A stretch of 64,000 nucleotides of DNA, from assembly GCF_044704955.1 (NCBI RefSeq), contig NC_091989.1, positions 40,300,001 through 40,364,000 on the forward strand. The letters run 5' to 3'. Shown one piece after another: positions 8,705 through 59,693 of the stretch. The position numbers and the translations under genes were made by a program. How positions within the stretch are numbered: position 1 is the first letter of the stretch; the number at the start of each line of letters is the position of its first letter. Source of the stretch: Pristiophorus japonicus. Lineage: Eukaryota. The notes beneath the pieces are model-generated. The model had not been told where the DNA came from, made no database searches, and was given only the letters and a program-made list of their open reading frames with translations.

Positions 8705-11507
8705 GTGTTAAAAAAAACAAGCCTGAAGGCTTTGTGTCTTAATGCAAGGAGTATCTGTAATAAGGTGGATGAATTAACTGTGCAAATAGATGTTAATAGA
8801 TATGATGTGATTGGGATTACAGAGACGTGGCTTCAGGATGATCAGGGCTGGGAACTCAACATCCATGGGTATTCAACATTCAGGAAGGATAGAATAAAAG
8901 GAAAAGGAAGTGGGGTAGCATTGCTGGTTAAAGAGGAGATTAATGCAATCGTTAGGAAGGACATTAGCTTGGATGATGTGGAATCTATATGGGTAGAGCT
9001 GCAGAACACCAAAGGGCAAAAAACGTTAGTGGGAGTTGTGTACAGACCTCCAAACAGTAGTAGTGATGTTGGGGAGGGCATCAAACAGGAAATTAGGGGT
9101 GCATGCAATAAAGGTGCAGCAGTTATCATGGGTGACTTTAATATGCACATAGATTGGGCTAACCAAACTGGAAGCAATATGGTGGAGGAGGATTTCTTGG
9201 AGTGCATAAGGGATGGTTTTCTCGACCAATATGTCGAGGAATCAACTAGGGGGGAGGCCATCTTAGACTGGATGTTGTGTAATGAGAGAGGATTAATTAG
9301 CAATCTCGTTGTGCGAGGCCCCTTGGGTAAGAGTGACCATAATATGGTGGAATTCTACATTAGGATGGAGAATGAAACAGTTAATTCAGAGACCATGGTC
9401 CAGAACTTAAAGAAGGGTAACTTTGAAGGTATGAGGCGTGAATTGGCTGGGATAGATTGGCGAATGGTACTTAAGGGGTTGACTATGGATGGGCAATGGC
9501 AGACATTTAGAGACTGCATGGATGAACTACAACAATTGTACATTCCTGTCTGGCGTAAAAATAAAAAGGGAAGGTGGCTCAACCGTGGCTATCAAGGGAA
9601 ATCAGGGATAGTATTAAAGCCAAGGAAGTGGCATACAAATTGGCCAGAAATAGCAGTGAACCTGGGGACTGGAAGAAATTTAGAACTCAGCAGAGGAGGA
9701 CAAATGGTTTGATTAGGGCAGGGAAAATAGAGTACGAGAGGAAGCTTGCAGGGAACATTAAGACGGACTGCAAAAGTTTCTACAGATATGTAAAGAGAAA
9801 AAGGTTAGTAAAGACAAACGTAGGTCCTCTGCAGTCAGAATCAGGGGAAGTCATAACGGGGAACAAAGAAATGGCAGACCAATTGAACAAGTACTTTGGT
9901 TCGGTATTCACTAAGGAGGACACAAACAACCTTCCGGATATAAAAGGGGTCAAAGGGTCTAGTAAGAAGGAAGAACTGAGGGAAATCCTTATTAGTCGGG
10001 AAATTGCATTGGGGAAATTGATGGGATTGAAGGCCGATAAATCCCCAGGGCCTGATGGACTTGAGGAGTATTTAAGGAGGTGGCCTTGGAAATAGCGGAT
10101 GCATTGACAGTCATTTTCCAACATTCCATAGACTCTGGATCAGTTCCTATGGAGTGGAGGGTAGCCAATGTAACCCCACTTTTTAAAAAAGGAGGGAGAG
10201 AGAAAACAGGGAATTATACATCGGTCAGCCTGACATCAGTAGTGGGTAAAATAATGGAATCAATTATTAAGGATGTCATAGCAGCGCATTTGGAAAGAGG
10301 TGACATGATAGGTCCAAGTCAGCATGGATTTGTGAAAGGGAAATCATGCTTGACAAATCTTCTGGAATTTTTTGAGGATGTTTCCAGTCGATTGGACAAG
10401 GGTGAACCAGTTGATGTGGTATATTTGGACTTTCAGAAGGCTTTCGACAAGGTCCCAAACAAGAGATTAATGTGCAAAGTTAAAGCACATGGGATTGGGG
10501 GTAGTGTGTTGATGTGGATTGAGAACTGGTTGTCAGACAGGAAGCAAAGAGTAGGAGTAAATGGGTACTTTTCAGAATGGCAGGCAGTGACTAGTGGGGT
10601 ACCGCAAGGTTCTGTGCTGGGGCCCCAGCTGTTTACATTGTACATTAATGATTTAGACGAGGGGATTAAATGTAGTATCTCCAAATTTGCAGATGACACT
10701 AAGTTGGGTGGCAGTGTGAGCTGCGAGGAGGATGCTATGAGGCTGCAGAGTGACTTGGATAGGTTAGGTGAGTGGGCAAATGCATGGCAGATGAAGTATA
10801 ATGTGGATAAATGTGAGGTTATCCACTTTGATGGTAAAAACAGAGAAACAGACTATTATCTGAATGGTGACAGATTAGGAAAAGGGGAGGTGCAACGAGA
10901 CCTGGGTGTCATGGTACATCAGTCATTGAAGGTTGACATGCAGGTACAGCAGGCGGTTAAGAAAGCAAATGGCATGTTGGCCTTCATAGTGAGGGGATTT
11001 GAGTACAGGGGCAGGGAGGTGTTACTACAGTTGTCCAGGGCCTTGATGAGGCCACACCTGAAGTATTGTGTACAGTTTTGGTCTCCTAACTTGAGGAAGG
11101 ACATTCTTGCTATTGAGGGAGTGCAGCGAAGGTTCACCAGACTGATTCCTGGGATGGCGGGACTGACATATCAAGAAAGACTGGATCAACTGGGCTTGTA
11201 TTCACTGGAGGTCAGAAGAATGAGAGGGGATCTCATAGAAACGTTTAAAATTCTGACGGGTTTAGACAAGTTAGATGCAGGAAGAATGTTCCCAATGTTG
11301 GGGAAGTCCAGAACCAGGGGTCACAGTCTAAGGATAAGGGGTAAGCCATTTAGGACCGAGATGAGGAGAAACTTCTTCACCCAGAGAGTGGTAAACCTGT
11401 GGAATTCTCTACCACAGAAAGATGTTGAAGCCAATTCATTAAATATATTCAAAAAGGAGTTAGATGTAGTCCTTACTACTAGGGGGATCAAGGGGTATGG
11501 TGAGTAA
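8705..11507 (+). pseudogene. CR1 ORF2p (APE endonuclease + reverse transcriptase), two frameshifts (~9570, ~10070)
   Basis: LNARSI, ITETWL, VYRPP, MGDFN, SDHN (EN); QHGF, DFQKAFD, GVPQGSVLGP, FADD (RT). Confidence 0.93.
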
Positions 11508-11622
11508 GCATGAATGGGGTACTGAAGTTGCATGTTCAGCCGTGAACTCATTGAATGGTGGTGCAGGCTAGAAGGGCCGAATGGCCTACTCCTGCACCTA
11601 TTTTCTATGTTTCTATGTTTCT

Positions 11623-12934
11623 AACTCTGCCCTCATCCCACTGTAGTCCCCTTTGTTTAAGCATAGTACGCTCGTTTGAGACACTACTTCCTCACCCTCA
11701 ATCTGTATTACAAATTCAACCATACTGTGATCACTCATTCCGAGAGGATCTTTTACTAGGAGATCGTTTATTATTCCTATCTCATTACACAGGACCAGAT
11801 CTAAGATAGCTTGCTCCTTTGTCGGTTCTGTAACATACTGTTCTGAAAAACAATCCCGTATGCATTCTATGAATTCCTCCTCCAGGCTACCCCGTGCGAT
11901 TTGATTTGACCAATCGATATGTAGGTTAAAATCCCCCATGATTACTGCCGTTCCTTTTTCACATGCCTCCATTATTCCCTTGATTATTGCCCGCCCCAAC
12001 GTGAAGTTATTATTTGGGGGCCTATAAACTACGCCCACCAGTGACTTTTTCCCCTTACTATCTCTAATCTCCACCCACAATGATTCAACATTTTGTTCAT
12101 TAGAGCCAATATCGTCTCTCACAACTGCCCTGATATCATCCTTTATTAACAGAGCTACTCCACCTCCTTCCCTTCTTGTCTATCTTTCCGAATTGTCAGA
12201 TACCCTGTATGTTTAATTCCCAGTCTTGGCCACCCTGCAACCACGTTTCTGTAATGGCCACCAAATCATACCCATTTGTAGTGATTTGTGCCGTCAACTC
12301 ATTTACTTTATTTCGAATGCTGCGTGCGTTTATGTAGAGTGTTTTAATATTAGTTTTTAAACCATGATTTTTAGTTTTGACCCCCTCCTGCAGCCCCTTT
12401 ATATTCATACATATTGTCTCTTCCTATCACCTTGTGGTTTGCACTTACCCCAGTACTACTCTGCTCTGTTGCCTCCTGCCTTTTGCATTCTTTCTTGGGG
12501 TCCTGTTCATCTGAGCTCTCACCCACTCTAACCAGCTCAGAGCCCTCTCCTGGGTTCCGAATACTCCTTGCATTGAGGCACCGAGCTTTCATGTTTGCCT
12601 TTTTATTACACTTTGACCCTTTAGAATTTTGTTGTACAGGGCCCTTTTTGTTTTTTGCCTTGGGTTTCTCTGCCCTCCAATTTTACTCATCTCCTTTCTG
12701 TCTTTTGCTTTTGTCTCCATTTTGTTTCCCTCTGTCTCCCTGCATTGGTTCCCATCCCCCTCCCATATTAGTTTAACTCCTCCCCAACAGCACTAGCAAA
12801 CACTCCCCCTAGGACATTGGTTCCGGTCCTGCCCAGGTGCAGACCGTCCGGTTTGTACTGGTTCCACCTCCCCCAGAACCGGTTTCAATGCCCCAGGAAT
12901 TTGAATCCCTCCTTGCTGCACCACTGCTCAAGCC
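11623..12934 (-). mobile_element. 5' continuation of the minus-strand CR1 (EN domain, inter-ORF region, ORF1 3' end)
   Basis: YINARSIRNK, ITETWLQ, VYRPP, MGDFN, SDH; 12770-12930 matches the ORF1 C-terminal segment (DGLHLG) at 8380-8545. Confidence 0.88.
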
Positions 12935-13212
12935 ATTTAGGACCGAGATGCGGAGGAACTTCTTCACCCAGAGAGTGGTGAACCTGTGGAATTCTCTACC
13001 ACAGAAAGTTGTTGAGGCCAATTCACTAAATATATTCAAAAAGGAGTTAGATGAGGTCCTTACTACTAGGGGGATCAAGGGGTATGGCGAGAAAGCAGGA
13101 ATGGGGTACTGAAGTTGAATGTTCAGCCATGAACTCATTGAATGGTGGTGCAGGCTCGAAGGGCCGAATGGCCTACTCCTGCACCTATTTTCTATGTTTT
13201 TATGTTTCTATG
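12929..13212 (+). mobile_element. CR1 3'-end fragment (TTTCTATG family)
   Basis: Near-identical to 11343-11622; joined to the minus-strand CR1 through microhomology AAGCCA. Confidence 0.88.
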
Positions 13213-15580
13213 ATACCTGCCACACCTATGCTCCATCTAACAGCAGCCCATCTGAGAGTTTCTGGAGTCTCACCCAAAGCAGATAAACATGGCCCGAGGG
13301 TGAAATGAATCAGTTTGATTGTTTGGATGCAGAATAAATTACATTTTGAAGTGACTGTAACTGAATGAGAAATATTTCTCAATATGAAGTTCCTTTACTT
13401 AAATACGTATCACATGGATTTGGATTGCAGTAACATCCAAGAAACAATTTGGTGGGATTTCAATCAAGCATTATTTCCTAATCTGAGTAATCTTATTGGT
13501 CCAGCTGTCTTTCATGCTTCATTTTTTAAAAGAGTCAGACTCTGGAGGTTTTGGAGGTCTTGACTTTCTAGGGCATGGTGCCTATGGTCTTTCCATTTTG
13601 GATTCTTGTGGTTCCAAAGAATTTAGCTTAGGTTACAACATTGTGAATGTATGCTCGTACTTTCCATTTTAATCAGAGGTAATCAGCAATGGTCTTTTAT
13701 GGTTTATTTGGCAGCGTAAAGATATTTGGATCATCCTTTTCTCATACTTGGGTCTGTGGACTATAAAGTTGGCATGTACGAAATGTGATCAGGCCCTGGA
13801 CAGAAGTGAGCCAGATTACCCGATGGGGAAGCCGGAAAATGGACCAAAACCAGGTACTATCAGAATTCTGTCCTGTGTTTTCCATTCTGCCATTCATTGG
13901 GGGAGAGGTGGATTTTCCATCCAACCCCCATCAAGAGGGCATATCTAAGGGAGTTCGTGGGTCATCCAAGAATTCCGACCTCTACTTCCTCTTTCGGCTT
14001 CAGGGGAACTCATGTCAGAGCTAATATGAGTCTCAGTGAAGGGCTCCAAACTTCTAGTACAGACAGGTGATCAATCTCGGGGTTGGGGACGGAGTGGGGG
14101 GGGCGGTCTCTGAAGCACGTTGGATTGGGCAATTTTTCAGGCATCACTGTCGGCCATCTAATATAGATGTTAGGCTCCTTCCTTATGTTCATGAAGGCCC
14201 CAGTGCCTGTTTTAGGAAATCTTCCTGAAATTGGGTCGCTCAGGTTTTCATGCTGTGGATGCAGCCTAGCAAACGATCATCAACAAAAGTAAGAACTTTC
14301 ACGTCAAGATAGTAGGAGCAGGAGTGACCCTCCCGGCTCCACTGCAGTCCTGAGGGCCTCAGTTGAGCTGCAATCGCCACCCTCCCATTCTCCTTCCCAC
14401 TCCCCTCCAGGATGGGTGAAAAAGTGGAGCGCTGCCTTTGGAGGCACGACAGTTGTGAACAGTTTGCCGCAATTATTAAAACAAGGATCGAGCCCAATTT
14501 CAAGCGAACTTCAGGATTCCCGTTTTGGATACATGAAGCATGTGTGTTGTCAGTTATGCACAGGTAAATGAGCCGTAACACATTTTTCTCCCAATATATT
14601 TTGTGTAAATGATTGCTGCTGAATAAGAAATTAAATAAATCCACAACCTATTCAATAGAGCCATTTTACTGAGTTAAAGCAGCTTAATTTTCAACTTTTT
14701 ATCAGCTGTCCCAGCTAGCACAACACAGCAGTGCACAGATGAACTGTGCCATGTATGTTCCCCGCTGTGATTGCCCCATGGAGTGAGTTCCTGATTAGAG
14801 ACCGTCTAGAGAAATGGATGCCATTCACCCATACAAAGCTAGTTTCAAGTTGACTGACAAAAATGAGTTATTTTATGTCAACTTTTGATTTAGTGACCAT
14901 TCGTTTAAATTCGGCCACAGTACATGAACCGACGGCAGCTCAGATTATTGTACCGAGCTTATATTGATGCAATGTTGCAATTTTTGTCAGTTAAAAGCTG
15001 TGGAGAGAAATCATTTAAACTTAAATCATGCTGTGCCAAACTAATGGGAGTGGGCACAGGAATGAAAAAGTGCTGACCGAGAGTTAGAAATTAAACTGAC
15101 TGACAGGCTATCATATGGAGAGGTGATGAGTGAGAGACAGGAATAATGTCAGTGGGATAGAAAGGACAAGCAACTATCTCAGTGACATATGAGAAGGCTG
15201 GTATGGCCGTGTGGGAATGATGAATGTGCATTTGTGCCATAACAGGAGACTCACATTAGGAATAATGAAAGAATCCAAAATGAGGAAAAAGTCAAGGTTC
15301 TCAGAATCCATATGCTACTATTGTGTTCTGTATAAACCGACTTTTTTTGTTTATTCAGTGAAAAAAATTAAACCTTATTTAATTAATGAAGCATCAATGA
15401 ATTAAATGCTGTTGGAAAAATGCAGAACGTACCAATCTTCTTACTCTGGAGTGGGGATGGAATGTGGGGGATGGAATGTGTAATTTATGTCACTGAAAAA
15501 TGATCATACACATTCTTTGCAAATGTTTAAAAATGATAGTAGCCAGTATTGACTAACCCCATTATAAGCTTCTTTGGATA

Positions 15581-22023: not shown

Positions 22024-22820
22024 ATGGTATTGCTGCTCTTGACCTCCTTGATGGTAGAGGTCGCAGGGGAGGGAGCTCTAAAACTTACAGTATCAATGAA
22101 TCTTTTTCACACATTTCCTATGCATCACATCTCTCGCACTATACTTCTGCAGAACATTCTTTGCAGCTTTATCGTTATGATTACATCAAGTTCTTGGTCT
22201 CATGTAAAATTGGATGTTTAGTATCAGGAGTACATAGAGGCAAAACGTATGTGGCTAGATTTCCCTCATCCCACCAGAAGAGGTTCAGGTGGAACTTCTA
22301 CCCACCTCTCTGACCCTACCATGACCCCAACCCAACTTCCTGGAATGGGGCTCATTACCAATACAGGGTGAGCTCCTATCACAAGAGGGCTGCTGCTGGG
22401 GACAGAACTGCTGTGGTACTGCACTGGGACCACTGCTGCAGAAGAAGAAGAGGAGATCACCTACAAAGCTCAGGTCAGGAGTGTGATGGAATACTCTTGC
22501 CTGGATGAATGCAGCTCAATAACACTCAAGAAGCTCAATACATTCAGGACAAAATTTCCAAATTTAGCTCAGTATCAACTTGGCTCATTGATCAAACTCT
22601 TGTCTTTGAGTCAGAAGATTATGGGCTCAAGTTCCTCCAGGAAATTCCAGGTTTCTTTAATTAGTATTCCCCCACTGGATTCAATATCCACTCCCTCCAC
22701 TACTGTGGCTGCATGATAAACTATTTCAGTTGTGCTGCAGCAGCTCACTAAGCTTATTTTGAAAGCAGCTCCCTCCCCTGCGACCTCTACCATCAAGGAG
22801 GTCAAGAGCAGCAATACCAT
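22024..22820. repeat. Perfect 54-bp inverted repeat (22024-22077 / 22767-22820)
   Basis: ATGGTATTGCTGCTCTTGACCTCCTTGATGGTAGAGGTCGCAGGGGAGGGAGCT and its exact reverse complement; the ORF track shows the same peptides on both strands. Confidence 0.9.
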
Positions 22821-23045: not shown

Positions 23046-23925
23046 CAAAGAGCAGAAAATCTGTTTTTAGTTTTATTGGTTGTGGGTTTATTGGCTCCCT
23101 CTCTATCAAATAGAACCATGGGAACAGGTGGATTAGGGCATTGATTTAACTTTTCATCCAAATGATCCTGCACAGTACTCCCTCAATGATGCTCTGAAAT
23201 GTCAGCCTAGATTATGTGCTGATAATAAAGAGGGTCGAGCCCACAATCTTCTGACTTAAAGACAAGAGTTCTACCAACGTGCCAGGGTGAGACTGAGGTA
23301 AATTTGGAAATTTATCTCATCGTAGTACAGTGAATTAGACGTGAAATCTAACTTGAGCACCGCCGCCATGTACACTCTGGATCTATATTGTTTCAATGGG
23401 TCTGACTAAGATCAAGTATTTAAAAATTGAAAACATAAGCCAAATTAAGTACAAAAAGAAGGCAAATGCAACAGAATATTGCAAAGGACAATGGCCCTGA
23501 ATATCTACAGGGATTGTCCTGATCTCCTGCAGCAACTTTGACACTTGGGCATTTGACAACATTTCTCTGAGTGTTCCAGTGATCTGCCACTGAATTTATG
23601 CCAGGAAATTGAGGCAACCCCTGCAGAAATTTACGGTTAATATACATTGCTATGAATCTATCTGGAGAATTCAATGAAGTAAAAAATAATTTCACATTTA
23701 ACAGGTGGATTTAGTTAAGGAATGAGGGAATTACAAAATATGTTTAAATTAAATTTTAAATCCGGCAATCCAGTTATTTTCTCTCCCTCTTTGGGTTGTA
23801 TGAACAAGAAAACATTCCCAGGATGCGAGCGTTTGCAGGTCCCAGACTACGGGGTCCTATATAACGATGTTCACTCCAAATAGAAATTCATTGTTAAATG
23901 CACTTTGTGATGTTTTGCAAATGTG

Positions 23926-28975: not shown

Positions 28976-31069
28976 CAGCACCTGATCATTGGGAGGAACC
29001 AGTTTCTTATGACTTTGAAGATGGGTCCTTAGCACCTCCATCTTCTCCAGAACCCCCAAACATAGCGCTGCCATTGTCGCCGCCCTCACCCCACCACCCA
29101 GCCTCAGCAGTCACGCTCAAGTTGGGAAAGGTGGCCATAGGTAGAATTATCAGAGGGTGCAGGGTCTTTTCAGTGGTGTTTATACTGTTGTTGATGTTGT
29201 TGTTGCTGCTATTTGTTATTCATAATGTTTTTTGTTGTCAAAATTTGTATTCATAAAAAATACATTATTTTATTACATTGGTAAAGTTTAATACAAATTT
29301 TCAAGTGTCATATAAAATTTTATTCAACTAAATCATTCTTGTACTGTGTCTCACTCACTTCTGTGAAGGGGAAAATATACCCAATTTGACAACTTTTAGG
29401 AAACGCAACTTTAAATGTGTGATTGACGGTGCCCCTTGTAAACGCGTACCTTAACTTGGATGACCCAGACCCAACTGACTGGGCTTTTCTTGAGTCTTGT
29501 GAACATCATGTAACTGGGTAAGCCACTCACAACGCAACAGCTCTACCAACCTGTGAGCATTCTCACAGGTGCATACATTACAGTTGTGATGTCTGCTACA
29601 GTTGAATAGCCCCACTACCACATTGACAAGCCACGTGAAGAATGGTTACTTGGATGTACACCTCGTGACTGACACCATTTTCTCCCCACACACCCCCACT
29701 ACCACCCCCTCAGGTCTCCTTGTACACCCTTCTCTCCCCCTCTCAGGTCACTCTAAGCACCAGTGTCTGACTCCCTTCTCCCACCTCCTCGCCCCCCCAC
29801 CCCAATCGCCTCAGGTCGTTCTGTACACACAGTGACTTGGATGAGGCCCCATTGCGTGGACACAACCCCTCCCCCCTCCGCGGCCCCGCTACAGCCAGCA
29901 TCAGTAAAGGGGAGGTGTGGGGGGAGAAAATTTCCCAGAAATAATTCATGTTCAGCAATGAATAACTCAGTGGGCATGACTCCAATGGCTTCTTCCTGAG
30001 TGTTGTTACATATGTTACAAAATCCATTTCCTGCCACCCACAAAATCAGCCCCTCAGCATGTTACACAGGTACTGGTCAGTTACTCCAGTCAAACAGACG
30101 TGAAACATCTGCAATCCAATTGGGTTTATTTTTTAAACAATGTTTTGATTGGGTGCGTCTGTTTTCTGTGGAACCAGAAATACACCAGACAGCATCGCTC
30201 AGCAAACACCCTGAGTTCAGTGTGTCTTTGAATTCACGGCAGCTAGCAAGACACGGCGAGGGAGAGGAGGTGGTGTTTGGGGGCAGGGGAGTGGTGGGAT
30301 GTGGCGTAAGATGCAGTAAATCAGCCACGGTTCTGACTCCTGACTCTGGTGGCAGTGTGGATGCGACAATGGCCTTCGTGCTCCTTGGCTGGGGTGGGGG
30401 AGGGGGTGGGGGGAATTGTGTGCCGGGGGGGTGTAAGGTGCAGTAAATCAGCCAAGGTTCTGACTCCTGACTCCATGGTTATGGATGTTGAGCAACGATA
30501 GGATCAAGCATGGCCAAGATGTCACTCCAATTGAAAGGCCTGCTTATATTAACTGGACTCACACACTGAAGTTCTGGCCCTAATGTATTGGCATCCGAGC
30601 ACTCAAAGAGAAGGTTTGCTGGAAAACCTAAAAACTTTTTTATAAATTGCATTGTGATTAATTTACACATCAGGAACACCAAATAAAAATAGCCATTGGG
30701 GTAATGTACCAGTGGGCATTTGGTGCCTGTTGCACTATACTATACGCCAACAAAGGTTTTCTTCATTAACATCGATCTTCTGGCCCACTGCAAAGCTGAA
30801 AAGAAAATGGGCCCAAGTCAGGTAAGTACTTCAGAAATAGGCGGTTTTGATTGGAGCGATAACGGGCAGTAGCGGGCCTTAAAAAAAACTTTTTTGTAGA
30901 AATTAGCGCTGGCAGGGAATTTTCCGCGACTTCTGGGCGTCCAAAGTGGGCGGGCACTTTGCAGCAACCGCCGGCGATAATCAGGAGGTGAAACAGGTAG
31001 TACAGGGCGGTAACTGGGCGTTAAATCGCCGATCGGAGGGGAAATTCTAGCCCAATCACAAGACACAGA

Positions 31070-31853
31070 CTGGGTGTTTTTGCGACTGGAAGGATGTTTC
31101 CAATGGGGTTCCGCAGGGCTCAGTACTAGGTCCCTTGCTTTTTGTGATATACTTCAATGATCTAGACTTCAATATATGGGGAATGATTAAGAAGTTTGCA
31201 GATGATACTAAAATCTGCTGTGTGGTTGATAATGAAGAAGAAAGCTGTGGACTGCAGGAAGATATCAATCAACTGGTCAGGTGGACAGAACAGTGGCAAA
31301 TGGAAATTAATCCAGAGAAGTGTGAGGTAATGCATTTTGGGAGGGCTAACAAGGAAAGGGAATACACATTAAATGGTAGGATACTGAGAAGTGTAGAGGA
31401 GCTAAGGGACCTTGGAGTGCATGTCCACAGATCCTTGCAAGTAGCAGGCCTGGTAGATAAGGTGGTTAAGAAGGCATACAGAATGCTTGCTTTTATTAGC
31501 TGAGGCACAGAATACAAGAGCAGAGGGGTGGGGGGGGTTATCCAGAATCGGGGGTCACAGTCTAGGGATGGGGGGTAGGCCATTTGGGACTGAGATGAGG
31601 AGGAGCTTCGCCCAGTGAGTGGTGAGCCTGTGGAATTCTCTGCCACAGAGAGTTGTTGAGGCTGATTCACTAAGTGTATTCGGGTGGGGAGTTGGATGTG
31701 ATCCTTGCTGCTGGGGGGATCGGGGGGTGTGGCGGGAGAGCAGGAGTGGGGTGCTGGGGTTGCATGTTCAGCCATGAACTCATTGAATGGCGGTGCAGAC
31801 TCGAAGGGCCGAATGGCCTACTCCTGCACCTATTTTCTATGTTTCTATGTTTC
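31070..31853 (+). mobile_element. Chimeric CR1 insertion: RT fragment of one family (31070-31525) fused to an A-to-G hypermutated 3' end of the TTTCTATG family (31541-31853)
   Basis: 5' part aligns to 56996-57450; 3' part aligns to 59380-59693 and 11307-11622 with about 30 A>G changes. Confidence 0.88.
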
Positions 31854-32974
31854 TTTTTACCTGAGGTCGACATTACTTACCTCTCTGCGGCCGCTACAGC
31901 CCGCTTTCACAGGCGGTCCCTGCAGGGCGCTCTACGGAGCACTAAGGGTCGGGCAGCAGCCAAAAATCAAGCCAGTGTCACAACCAGGGGCTTTGCACAC
32001 TGGCTCGCCTCTTCCGGATGGTAATGCTTAATGCTCCACACCCTGTCGAAACCAGCACCGAAAGTCTCGGTGAGGCGCTGGAAACTGGTCGCTCACCCCG
32101 AAGTGCTTACCACCGCCATTGTCACCCCTCCGGGGCACTAACAGGAGCAGCAAAAGCCCGAAAATACAGGTCCTGATATTTGAAAAGAGCTTGCAAATAA
32201 GTGACATTAAACGAACACTCCTGAAAAGAAATACACTGGATCTGAACAAAATCGATTCAGAAATATATATCTTATGCTGCCGTCAGTGATGGTGGAAGTA
32301 TAAAAACAGACAAACCTTTGTGAACAAAGCATAGCTGTTGAGCTGGTACGGGGAAGAGCAGTAGCCGACATTGTAAAATCGGAAATATGACACAGGTGAG
32401 TTAAACCAATCTGACATTTTAGCAGGATATTCCAATGAGGTGGCATATGGCAATTACACTGGGGCCCTGAAGACTACGGAAGCAGATGGAGTTTGAATAC
32501 AAGGAATCAGTTGGGGAGCATTGACCATGACACTGTTCTGTGCTATTAGTTTTATGGAATATTAATAAGCAAAATATAAATTATTACATTTACCTTCATA
32601 GTTCCAACTGGGGCACCATATGCATAGTCTTTTTTTTAAACCAGTCTGTTACACAGTTGAGATAGAGGATAAAAATCACGTGCCATCAGAACGTCTGACC
32701 ACCCCATTGACCCCACAATGATCCCATCCCGAATCTCAGGGAAGGAGCCATTTAAATAATAGAGGCAGACACCTGTAGTGCCACAACAAGGGTATCCACT
32801 CCACTGGAATATCGAAGCGACATCCCGCATGAAGATGAGCACTAGTTTCCTGCCGCACTAAAGACTGCAGGCAGTATGAAAAGTTTGGTAAAGGGACATT
32901 TATAAAAATATTAAAGTTTATAAATATATAATTTTTATAGTTATTCTGAGATTGATTACCATTTGCTTCCTCAA

Positions 32975-33398
32975 TGGTATGTTCACATGCCAGACACGAG
33001 ACTCCCAAAGCAAGCGCTCTACTCGGAACTCCTTCATGGCAAACAAGCCAAAGATAGGCAGAGGAAACATTACAAGGACACCCTCAAAGCCTCCCCGATA
33101 AAATGAAACATCCCCACTGACACCTGGGAGTCCCTGGCCAAAGACCGCCCTGGAGGAAGTGCATCCGGGAGGGCGCTGAGCACCTTGAGTCTCATCGCCG
33201 AGAGCGTGGAGAAAACAAGCGCAGGCAGGGGTAAGAGCGTGCGGCAAACCTGTCCCACCCTCCCCTTCCCTCAATGACTATCTGTCCCACCTGTGACAGG
33301 GACTGTGGTTCTTGTATTATACTGTTCAGCCACCCAAGGACTCATTTTAAGAGTGGAAGCAAGTCTTCCTCGATTCCGAGGGGCTGCCTATGATGATG
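32975..33398 (+). mobile_element. RTE LINE 3' fragment
   Basis: Matches 50225-50648; ends GGGCTGCCTATGATGATG. Confidence 0.85.
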
Positions 33399-33603
33399 GT
33401 ATTGCGACCCAGAATGGCACCTACACCTGTTCTTGGTGGTGGTAGGTTCCGCTGGGCCTATCGGGGCTCATCTGGCGTAGCCCAGGAACATCCCTAGACA
33501 GGCTGCAAACTGCTACCAGGATGCAAAGGGGGGCAGGCAAAAGAAGCCCAACCCTGCCTGACCAGAATTTTCTTCATCTTTGCGAATGAATCGTAAACCC
33601 TGT

Positions 33604-33770
33604 GGATTTTAACCAATAAGGGAATTAAGGGTTACGGGGAGCGGATGGGTAAATGGAGCTGAGTCCACGGCCAGATCAGCCATGATCTTGTTGAATGGCA
33701 GAGCAGGCTCGAGGGGCTAGATGGCCTACTCCTGTTTCTAATTCTTATGTTCTTATGTTATGTTCTTATG
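33604..33770 (+). mobile_element. Short CR1 3' end (TTCTTATG family)
   Basis: Reverse complement of 4561-4700; tail TTCTTATGTTCTTATGTT. Confidence 0.8.
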
Positions 33771-35039
33771 ATCCAGGTTCTAATCCAAAATCCAGATCCT
33801 CTGGCACAACTGGGCCTGAATTCCATGCCCCCACCTCCAGGAGTGTAATTCCAAGGCTAGAATGCCTTGTTCTGATATTTCACTATATACCCCAATTATT
33901 TTTAAGGATAGCACCTTATGATACAGCTGAATTCTCCTGGTAAGAATCAAGAGCTGCCCTACTAACTGAGTCAACTCGTAACGTGTATTTTTAGCAATTT
34001 GAAGCGCAGCTAAGTGATATTTCAGGCCTCTATAGAATGATTTTCTGTCAACTACAGGTAAATGTTGCTGCCAATGAACTTAATTTTGTGTGAGAGAAAC
34101 AGCTGCCTGCTTTATGGTACAATGCCAGCCCTACATAAGGGACTAGGTGATCTTGGAACCAGAGAATGCGAATAGGACTGTCTAACAAAGTGAAAAAGGC
34201 ATATTCATTAAAATAAGGAAAGAATATTGCAGAAAAAGCAGGAAGAATAAGACAACTGACGTGTAGCTTGAAGCATCACTGAAGCAGGAGGTAACAGAAA
34301 GCAGCTTAAAACTGATGGACTGTCTTTCAAGCAGGCAGATCACATTATATTAGTGAATGCCCTTGATTATTAATTAACTAGTCTTCTCCGCATATGTAGT
34401 CGACATAAAATACTGTTTGTACAGATAATTGCTTCATTTTGTGTAAGAAAAAAAAATAAAAATACCTGTTTTCTGATGTAAATGATGGAACTAAACAACA
34501 CAAGATTGTGGCTTAATGTATGATAAGAATGATGTAAATTGTGCTATTTGCATAAAACATATGCTTAATTAGCTTAAATCTTACGCTGAGAATATGGATT
34601 TAAGAGATAAAAAGGTAAAATTGTACATAGAATTAATTTTACATACAAAATGAGTGTGGCCATTTAACTGAGTACTGTGGAAGCAAGAGTATACCAAACA
34701 ACACACCATTTTAAAAGCAAAAAAGGTCCCTTTTTTCAATATACCCTACTCTATGTGAAGAAATGTATTATATCTCCCAGGTAATACTTTTAATACTTTT
34801 AATGTAACAGTTCCAAAGCCTGCTCTCAGTTATATTACAGCCCCCTAGAGAGATGTACAACTGGCAGGTCCAAATTATACAATCATTCATGTGCAGAGCT
34901 CTGCGCACCAGAGCTGAAATATTGGTTAATGTTAGGGACGAGCCAATGGGACAACCTTCACCAACATAAATACATTTGTTAAATCACCTGGGGATATCTT
35001 AAACTGTGCTCCACACTAGTTGCAGCTAAGGTGGAGCTA

Positions 35040-56459: not shown

Positions 56460-58018
56460 TAGTGAGAGAAGACGTTTTAAAGGGCTTAGCAGCTTTGAAA
56501 GTGGGTAAATCCCCAGGCCTGGATGAAATGTATCCCAGGCTGTTAAGAGAAGCAAAAGAGAAAATAGCAGTTCTTGTGCCTGAGGACTGGAGGACTACTA
56601 ATGTTGTACCTTTGTTTAAAAATGGAGAAAGGGATAGACCGAGTAATTACAGGCCAGTCAGCCTAACCTCGGTAATGGAAAAATTATTGAAAAAAATCCT
56701 GAGGGACCGGATAAATCTTCATTTGGAAAGACATGGATTAATCAAGGACAGTCAACATGGATTTGTCAAGGGAAGGTCATGTCTGACTAACTTGATTGAA
56801 TTTTTCGAGAAGGCAACCAGGAGGGTCAATGAGAGGAGTGCGTATAATGTAGTGTATATGGATTTTAGCAAAGCTATTGATAAGATTCCACATAGTAAAC
56901 TGGTCACGAAAGTAATAGCCCATGGGATCCAGGACAAAGTGGCAAGTTGGATCCAAAATTGGCTCAGAGGCAGGAAGCAAAGGGTAATGGTTGATGGGTG
57001 TTTTTGTGACTGGAAGGCTGTATCCAGTGGGGTTCTGCAGGGCTCAGTGCTGGGTCCCTTGCTTTTTGTGGTATATATCAACGACTTGGACTTAAATGTT
57101 GGGGATATGATTACGAAGTTTGCAGATGACACTAAAATAGACTGTGTGGTTGATAATGAAGATGAAAGCTGCGGACTGCAGGAAGATATCAATGTATTGG
57201 TCAGGTGGGCAGAACAATGGCAAATAGAATTAAATCTGAATAATTGTGAGGTAATGCATTTGGGGAGGTCTAACAAGGCAAGGGAATACACATTAAATGG
57301 TATGACACAGAACAGTGTAGAGGAACAATGGTTCCTTGGAGTGCAGGTCCACAGATCCCTGAAGGTAGCAGGCCAGGTAGATAAGGTGATTAAGAAGACA
57401 TATGGAAAACTTGCCTTTATAAGTGGAGGCATGGAATACAAGAGCAAGGAGGTTATGCTTGAACTGTTTAAAACACTGGTTAGGCTGCAGCTGGAGTACT
57501 GTGTACAATTCTGGTCACCACATTACAGGAAAGATGTGATTGCACTGGAAGTTGACTGGACTGGAGAGTTTTGGCTATGAGGAAAGATTGAAGATGCTGG
57601 GTCAGTTTTCTTTGGAACAGAGGAGGCTAAGGGGAGACCTGATTGAGGTGTATAAAATTATGAGGGGCCTGGATAGAGTGGATAGGAAGGACCTGTTTCC
57701 CTTGACAGAGGAGTCAACAACCAGGGGGCATAGATTTAAAGTAATTGGGGGGGACGTTTAGAGGAGATATGAGGGGCAATTTCTTCACCCCGAGGATGAT
57801 GGGGGTCTGGAAATCACTGCATGAAAGGATGGTAGAGGCAGAAACCCTCACCACATTTAAAAGATACTTGGATGTGCACTTACAGTGCCATAATCTGCAG
57901 GGCTATGGACCAAGAGGTGGAAAGTGGGATTAGGCTGATAGCTCTTGGTTGGCTGGAATGGACACGATGGACTGAAATGTCCTCCTTCCGTGCTGTAAAT
58001 TTCTATGATTCTATGATT
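56460..58018 (+). mobile_element. CR1 LINE, 5'-truncated (ATTCTATG tail)
   Basis: RT ORF 56462-57580 and downstream fragments; ends TTCTATGATTCTATGATTC, the classical CR1 octamer tail. Confidence 0.9.
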
Positions 58019-58823: not shown

Positions 58824-59693
58824 CACTTGGATAGGTTAGGTGAGTGGGCAAATGCGTGGCAGATGAAGTATAATGTGGATAAATGTGAGGTTATCCACTT
58901 TGGTGGTAAAAACAGAGAGACAGACTATTATCTGAATGGTGACAGATTAGGAAAAGGGGAGGTGCAAAGAGACCTGGGTGTCATGGTACATCAGTCATTG
59001 AAGGTTGGCATGCAGGTGCAGCAGGCGGTTAAGAAAGCAAATGGCATGTTGGCCTTCATAGCAAGGGGATTTGAGTACAGGGGCAGGGAGGTGTTGCTAC
59101 AGTTGTACAGGGCATTGGTGAGGCCACACCTGGAGTATTGTGTACAGTTTTGGTCTCCTAACCTGAGGAAGGACATTCTTGCTATTGAGGGAGTGCAGCG
59201 AAGGTTCACCAGACTGATTCCCGGGATGGCGGGACTGACCTATCAAGAAAGACTGGATCAACTGGGCTTGTATTCACTGGAGTTCAGAAGAATGAGAGGG
59301 GACCTCATAGAAACATTTAAAATTCTGACGGGGTTAGACAGGTTAGATGCAGGAAGAATGTTCCCAATGTTGGGGAAGTCCAGAACCAGAGGTCACAGTC
59401 TAAGGATAAGGGGTAAGCCATTTAGGACCGAGATGCGGAGGAACTTCTTCACCCAGAGAGTGGTGAACCTGTGGAATTCTCTACCACAGAAAGTTGTTGA
59501 GGCCAATTCACTAAATATATTCAAAAAGGAGTTAGATGTAGTCCTTACTACTAGGGGGAATCAAGGGGTATGGCGAGAAAGCAGGAATGGGGTACTAAAG
59601 TTGAATGTTCAGCCATGAACTCATTGAATGGCGGTGCAGGCTAGAAGGGCCGAATGGCCTACTCCTGCACCTATTTTCTATGTTTCTATGTTT
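58824..59693 (+). mobile_element. Young CR1 3' fragment (TTTCTATG family)
   Basis: Open RT C-terminal frame nearly identical to 10753-11622. Confidence 0.92.

Follow-up and report, generated by a model that had tools for sequence, protein, structure and literature searches.

The Hypermutated CR1 Copy

RNA editing is usually regarded as non-heritable, and one locus in the genome of Pristiophorus japonicus raises the question of whether it can be written back into germline DNA. The window, that is, the whole stretch of 64,000 nt that was analyzed (40300001-40364000 in a 5.92-Gb genome), contained many LINE fragments. An initial annotation had singled out one segment of a CR1-like element in which about 30 A>G changes stood against about five other differences, and had interpreted it as a LINE RNA edited by ADAR and returned to the germline.

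The copy was located at 31541..31853 on the plus strand. It was a 5′-truncated member of a CR1-like family, here named A, and comprised the last ~72 codons of ORF2, the 3′ UTR and a (TTTCTATG)n tail. It aligned to four sisters in the window at 77-85%: an unedited young one (59379..59693, plus strand, 99.3% to the family majority), an unedited older one (11307..11622, plus strand) and two others placed by alignment at 12932-13219 and 18405-18092. CR1/HER1 elements are marked by a 3′ stem-loop followed by an octamer tail in place of poly(A), and the name CR1 is presumed here from this tail and the C-terminal motif of ORF2. The 98-nt tail of the sister folded (z=-3.24), and a longer family-A copy, L142, encoded APE and RT domains (Exo_endo_phos and RVT_1).

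Against the sister at 59380, the segment 31541-31762 had 35 A>G changes among 72 A's and six other substitutions (3 C>T, 1 G>A, 1 C>A, 1 A>T and 0 T>C), in agreement with the excess first reported. The other three sisters gave A read as G at 36/74, 28/59 and 33/67 positions. With the column majority of the closest family-A subfamily as the reference, the hypermutated tract extended from 31550 to 31758 on the plus strand; 32 of its 69 A's were changed and 37 were retained, whereas none of 50 T's had become C (Fisher p=5e-10). The background in unedited copies was 22/1910. Other changes in the tract were 3 C>T, 2 A>T, 1 G>A, a 3-nt deletion and 1-nt insertions, and this single G>A was all that was found of the G>A clusters expected of APOBEC editing. 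The tract reached the ORF2 stop codon, which was lost, and the following 3′ UTR with its stem-loop and tail repeats (31759..31853, plus strand) was unedited, with 0/18 A's changed. No A>G skew was present in any of the 12 other CR1-like alignments within the window.

A's preceded by G, of which about two had been counted as changed and about 18 as untouched, were indeed spared: 3 of 20 were changed, vs. 29 of 50 with another 5′ neighbor (p=0.0013). The GCCAAT>GCTGAT site pointed out earlier was also present, with C>T at 31663 beside A>G at 31664 on the plus strand, as expected if A>G turned CpA into CpG and later decay turned CpG into TpG.

Hypermutated Copies Across the Genome

The window copy was one of dozens and not unique. 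By exact-pattern count, one 31-mer occurred 89,140 times in its unedited form and 89 times with four forced A>G changes, the window copy included; the same number of forced T>C, G>A and C>T changes gave 1, 0 and 0 copies. A second 32-mer was found 35,198 times unedited, seven times with three A>G and never with three T>C. When all 89 copies were aligned over their first 242 nt, they showed 1981 A>G, 44 T>C, 104 G>A and 116 C>T. Individual copies had between 6 and 46 A>G. They formed 36 clusters at 10% pattern distance, which may be nested and less than fully independent, and the window copy was a singleton among them.

The search patterns force sites of favored context, and these sites were left out of the neighbor rates of the 36 representatives. 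Editing was then found at 330/755 A's after A (0.44), 193/457 after T (0.42), 120/523 after C (0.23) and 133/763 after G (0.17). By triplet, GAT was edited at 4/122 sites and TAA at 58/93. This 5′ context, U/A > C > G, is the 5′-G depletion described for ADAR (PMC5625713; PMC8586724, from their available text). On the 3′ side the preference for G was weak (G 0.35, A 0.34, C 0.30, T 0.21); the available text of PMC5625713 gives G as the favored 3′ neighbor in amniotes and A in amphibians and invertebrates. Both the strand bias (32/69 vs. 0/50; 89:1:0:0) and the context bias claimed for this element proved strong. Site-wise edit rates of free and composite copies (see below) were correlated over 71 sites (rho=0.63), and the correlation of the window copy's sites with the site rates of the other copies was not significant (rho=0.17, p=0.16).

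Some tracts were long, namely 150 A>G vs. 2 T>C over 1.37 kb in L064, 154 vs. 3 in L066, 119 vs. 4 in L116 and 109 vs. 1 in L119, the last with a sharp 5′ edge. Tracts ended at element junctions, as both the B part of composites and the family-C piece in the window were unedited beside edited A. The lone T>C match (L128:1357-1626; G000:C2:151934506-151934775) was a 270-nt piece of CR1-A that lacked the tail. It bore 38 T>C and 8 A>G, and its mirrored context was mildly biased (G 7/15, T 9/13, A 14/17). It possibly represents the edited partner (antisense) strand, rarely captured by a route other than normal priming.

Three older free-A copies on three contigs (L124, L171 and L178) had a partly common A>G pattern, and L124 showed 116 A>G vs. 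18 T>C over 1.8 kb. Near-identical CR1-A copies were also seen in duplicated or tandem blocks (L012-L016 and L027-L029 on C7 at 227-237 Mb; L010, L018, L019 and L021 on C3 at 270.05 Mb).

Editing Near the 3′ End

In the last 95 nt, 33 representatives had 22 edits where 190 were expected, a profile that is biased by the search anchor at positions 33-63. The statement that these 95 nt are always spared was rejected: free copies were edited near the expected rate up to position 280 (26 observed vs. 35 expected at fragment positions 241-280), and L049, L066 and L098 were edited into the tail. Firm sparing was limited to the last ~55 nt, with 3 edits vs. 34 expected in free copies and 0 vs. 41 in composites. 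The sparing of the 3′ end, complete in the window copy and a tendency in the others, is in line with stringent recognition of the 3′ tail, as stated in the available text of PMC3747384.

A Composite Element Enriched in Edited Copies

Most of the sequences that matched the edited copy best adjoined the tail of a second LINE family, B, at one fixed junction. Family B was ~71% identical to A and had its own Exo_endo_phos and RVT_1 domains (L132). The composite consisted of a full family-B element plus a 336-nt family-A 3′ fragment (for example L071, L137 and L138); it was primed from the A tail, and its A fragment was a non-coding passenger. The B/A junction had 1,030 exact occurrences in the genome. 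Among the first 100 junction matches listed, 14 had G at an A site and 86 were unedited, and when 30 copies were chosen by the junction alone, two of the 28 aligned had at least 25 A>G and a third had 8.

Composites accounted for 56 of the 89 hypermutated copies (18 clusters) and free A copies for 23 (17 clusters), and 10 were truncated inside the fragment, the window copy included. The edited share was ~5% in composites vs. ~0.03-0.04% in the rest, a ~60- to 100-fold enrichment by clusters in which the denominators come from different patterns and exact matches only. The B part was clean in most edited composites, indicating that the tract begins at the B/A junction. Derivation of the window copy from a composite or from a free donor was considered and neither was assignable, because it had no diagnostic change in common with the other 88 copies. 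A common 5′ boundary of the composites was also rejected, being merely the truncation of L130 itself.

Other features of the composites were recorded. The 5′ end of family B in L133 (3271-4177) and L139 was an array of 24 tandem 38-bp units, possibly a monomer-type promoter. Upstream of the junction in L059, the 5′ part was apparently inverted, as in twin priming. Three A sites in the B 3′ UTR, 92, 80, and 79 nt before the junction, had G in roughly half the composites and varied even inside one edited family; CpG decay accounts for one of them, and recurrent site-selective editing may account for the others.

Subfamilies Founded by Edited Copies

Two edit patterns were recurrent and defined subfamilies of at least 20 and at least 24 composite copies, the latter merged by hand from sets of 16 and 8 copies. 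No 3′ flank was common among the 20 copies of the first subfamily, nor among the 15 tested of the 16 in the second (truncated L146 was omitted). Since the 3′ flanks were all different, the members were separate insertions; segmental duplicates made up 3 of 10 small pattern groups. Some members of the larger subfamily extended to the 5′ 38-bp tandem array, and the majority over six members gave a single open frame that ran for 1019 codons and encoded APE and RT domains. The full length and intact frame indicated that an edited, coding-intact copy went on jumping. Both subfamilies descend from edited masters.

L033 and L042 had the pattern of the larger subfamily together with 54 and 53 extra A>G in the B part, 49 of them common. 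Their 5′ ends were identical and their 3′ flanks different. Judged from their sequences, this looks like a second round of editing, after which the element, now truncated, moved again. As side observations, a second A>G cluster occupied the final 340-390 nt of B in L033, L042, L099 and L114, and L033 and L042 resembled a short non-autonomous element.

Proposed Mechanism

Strand-specific clusters, an ADAR-like context, long residence in methylated DNA (see below), recurrence and two subfamilies were all observed, and from them we infer the enzyme, the duplex and the timing. Hyper-edited CR1 RNA was very probably produced by ADAR and reverse-transcribed into germline DNA, as first suggested for the window copy. 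Sense CR1-A RNA would have paired with complementary CR1-A RNA in the germline or early embryo, the latter coming from an inverted neighbor in a read-through transcript or from an antisense transcript. Within the duplex, ADAR would have deaminated roughly every second A. The LINE RT, primed at the 3′ tail, would then have copied inosine as G and inserted the 313-nt cDNA.

Self-pairing into a long duplex was found neither in the fragment (z=+1.23, for the older sister 11307..11622) nor in the composite 3′ end (z=-0.2, longest helix 9 bp), so the duplex partner would have come from outside. The composites L129, L131, L132, L133, L135 and L139 had no internal inverted repeat, and the searches made found no donor locus or inverted partner. 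An outside partner is plausible, since near-identical copies lie on both strands in their tens of thousands and the L128 fragment was edited on the opposite strand. Six A_deamin loci were present in the genome.

The enrichment in composites may reflect a filter between coding and passenger sequence. Ordinary CR1-A copies are rarely edited, probably because edits in ORF2 disable the protein that acts on its own RNA, while a non-coding passenger would let edited RNAs jump freely and edited copies become masters. LINE proteins prefer their own RNA according to the available text on L1 (PMC3747384), and the same is assumed here for CR1; with this preference, editing of ORF2 would be self-limiting and that of the passenger would not. 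We lean slightly toward this filter as the explanation. Alternatively, the composite masters may by chance have had inverted A copies as neighbors.

A wider proposal is that in this germline ADAR hyper-edits CR1 RNA during retrotransposition, at a level of a few percent, and thereby restrains the LINE in an editing-dependent way, and that the composite escapes the filter, shows the true rate and founds subfamilies that are edited again. It is advanced tentatively, as slightly less likely than not. The available text of PMC5224506 counts against ADAR as the source of the edits, reporting no ADAR1 edits over >2.5 kb of human L1 RNA and an L1 restriction that is independent of editing.

Alternative Explanations

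Another adenosine deaminase is an unlikely source of the edits, whether an ADAD, an ADAT or some unknown enzyme that works on RNA or on the sense strand of DNA when displaced. The genome has six A_deamin loci, and sequence context names no enzyme; against this, the context fits the ADAR motif, and a process at the DNA level should cross element junctions, which the tracts do not. If ADAR had acted on the cDNA in an RNA:DNA hybrid, T>C would be left on the sense strand, for which 1 copy was observed vs. 89. ADADs are not known to be catalytically active in mammals.

Still less probable are bursts of polymerase error at insertion under an imbalance of the nucleotide pool, either by G opposite template T in second-strand synthesis or by C opposite A by the RT. 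Such bursts would confine the sense-strand A>G to the piece inserted, with no need for a dsRNA partner, and none was found. However, they do not predict the avoidance of 5′ G that separates GAT from TAA, they leave the strong enrichment in composites unexplained, and the B part was clean though it was copied in the same reaction as the edited A fragment.

Very improbable is an older G-rich subfamily, GC-biased conversion or transcription-linked asymmetry as the origin of the pattern. G-rich subfamilies with common patterns do exist. However, a G-rich parent of the window copy, which the initial annotation had itself raised as a challenge, did not emerge: its pattern was unique among the 89, the best other match reached 86%, the 89,140 copies of the 31-mer kept their A's, and the window copy had an unchanged tail and a lost ORF2 stop. 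In the families with shared patterns, the unedited form of the parent was the majority (86 of the first 100 junctions listed). GC bias should have produced T>C equally, and 0/50 were seen. The G-rich subfamilies are daughters of edited masters and not the parent of the window copy.

DNA runs X1 and X3 (Logan contigs) each contained one 64-nt piece corresponding to 31705-31768 with 0 differing letters; the two are one sample, maybe the assembly's own, and among the contigs listed none covered the whole tract. In 33 pattern representatives, C had become T 5′ of an edited A in 7/106 cases and 5′ of an unedited A in 2/356 (p=7e-4), and native CpG decay was 39/256. The decay of CpGs made by editing indicates that the G's have long resided in methylated DNA, and together with the short-read contigs it places them in old germline DNA, as had been supposed. 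A sequencing or polishing artefact has therefore almost no probability, even with a G-rich tract that short-read contigs cover only in part, since exact short-read pieces carry the G's, the edit-created CpGs have decayed, identical patterns recur at 20 and 15 loci whose 3′ flanks are unrelated, and the matches lie 47 forward and 42 reverse on the assembly, yet always on the sense strand of the element. Read depth of X5 and X6 (other samples, a small share) over 31697-31737 was considered as evidence of fixation and set aside, as no listed piece ties those reads to the locus.

Comparison with Known Systems

A close parallel to the write-back of ADAR-edited RNA proposed here is human L1 in cultured cells, where ADAR-edited RNA was written to DNA in 3/235 pseudogene insertions (PMC11702581, available text). 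In both systems A-to-I clusters were copied into DNA by a LINE RT. According to the same text, however, those edits were somatic and experimental and lay in inverted Alus of passenger mRNAs, whereas the edits described here lie in the LINE itself, are old and inherited, arose repeatedly and were amplified again. Nam et al. (2023; PMC10191854) was considered as a precedent for ADAR clusters in somatic L1 and rejected, since its main text mentions neither ADAR nor RNA editing.

A-to-G hypermutation of the avian retroviruses RAV-1 and ALV (Felder, 1994; Hajjar and Linial, 1995, as cited in the available text of PMC8586724) is similar in that ADAR-linked clusters were fixed by reverse transcription, but these are single exogenous LTR viruses and not germline non-LTR elements. 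APOBEC "DNA editing" of vertebrate retroelements (PMC4866542; PMC2873906, available text) likewise left strand-biased hypermutated copies in genomes and follows the same control logic. It differs, as described there, in giving G>A by cDNA deamination in LTR elements, in contrast to A>G with 5′-G avoidance and a G>A control of 0 here. PMC4866542 screened 123 genomes for G>A in LTR elements, and its available text does not mention ADAR; a class of A>G LINE copies may thus have been missed.

At the RNA level, chicken CR1 3′ fragments form dsRNA and are heavily edited at over 35,000 sites, and elephant shark brain had 200,171 hyper-editing sites with 5′-G depletion (PMC5625713). No write-back to DNA is reported in the available text of that study, whereas the edits found here are in DNA. 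Among the titles and abstract openings searched in openly accessible journals, neither germline-inherited A>G hypermutated LINE copies nor subfamilies founded by edited masters were found. The contribution of this genome lies in the scale with matched controls, the contrast of coding and non-coding sequence, and the edited masters.

Taken together, the dozens of LINE insertions with edits, the 89:1:0:0 controls and the subfamilies from edited masters amount to what would be a fossil record of germline ADAR activity. They make testable how frequently edited RNA returns to DNA and whether LINEs are restricted by editing, and the composite is a natural reporter for this because one and the same sequence codes for protein in family A and does not in the composite. 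If the proposal is true, RNA editing is a direct heritable source of LINE subfamily sequence.

Insertion Site and Neighboring Sequence

The edited copy was adjoined by a piece of another CR1-like family, C (31071..31540, plus strand), which covered an RT region with KFADD and was 85% identical to 56995-57446. The skew was absent from this piece, which had 9 A>G vs. 11 G>A against that sister. A G-rich 9-nt expansion was present at the C/A junction, and the remainder of the C element was absent downstream; its ordinary continuation was seen in loose ends at 31523 (Logan contigs). No target-site duplication of the window copy was found by eye. Together with the missing C remainder, this points to an insertion with deletion or a template-switch chimera.

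The C/A pair (31071-31853) lay between GC-rich, repeat-like flanks with 19-nt inverted arms at 30810-30828 and 31874-31892. Around the window copy, nothing beyond arms of 14-27 nt was found as an inverted partner, and its neighborhood says little about the donor. No Rfam match was obtained at 29000-35000. Elsewhere in the window, a perfect 54-nt inverted repeat was located at 22024-22077 and 22767-22820, with the arms ~690 nt apart, and a second inverted pair at 22552-22628 and 23237-23313.
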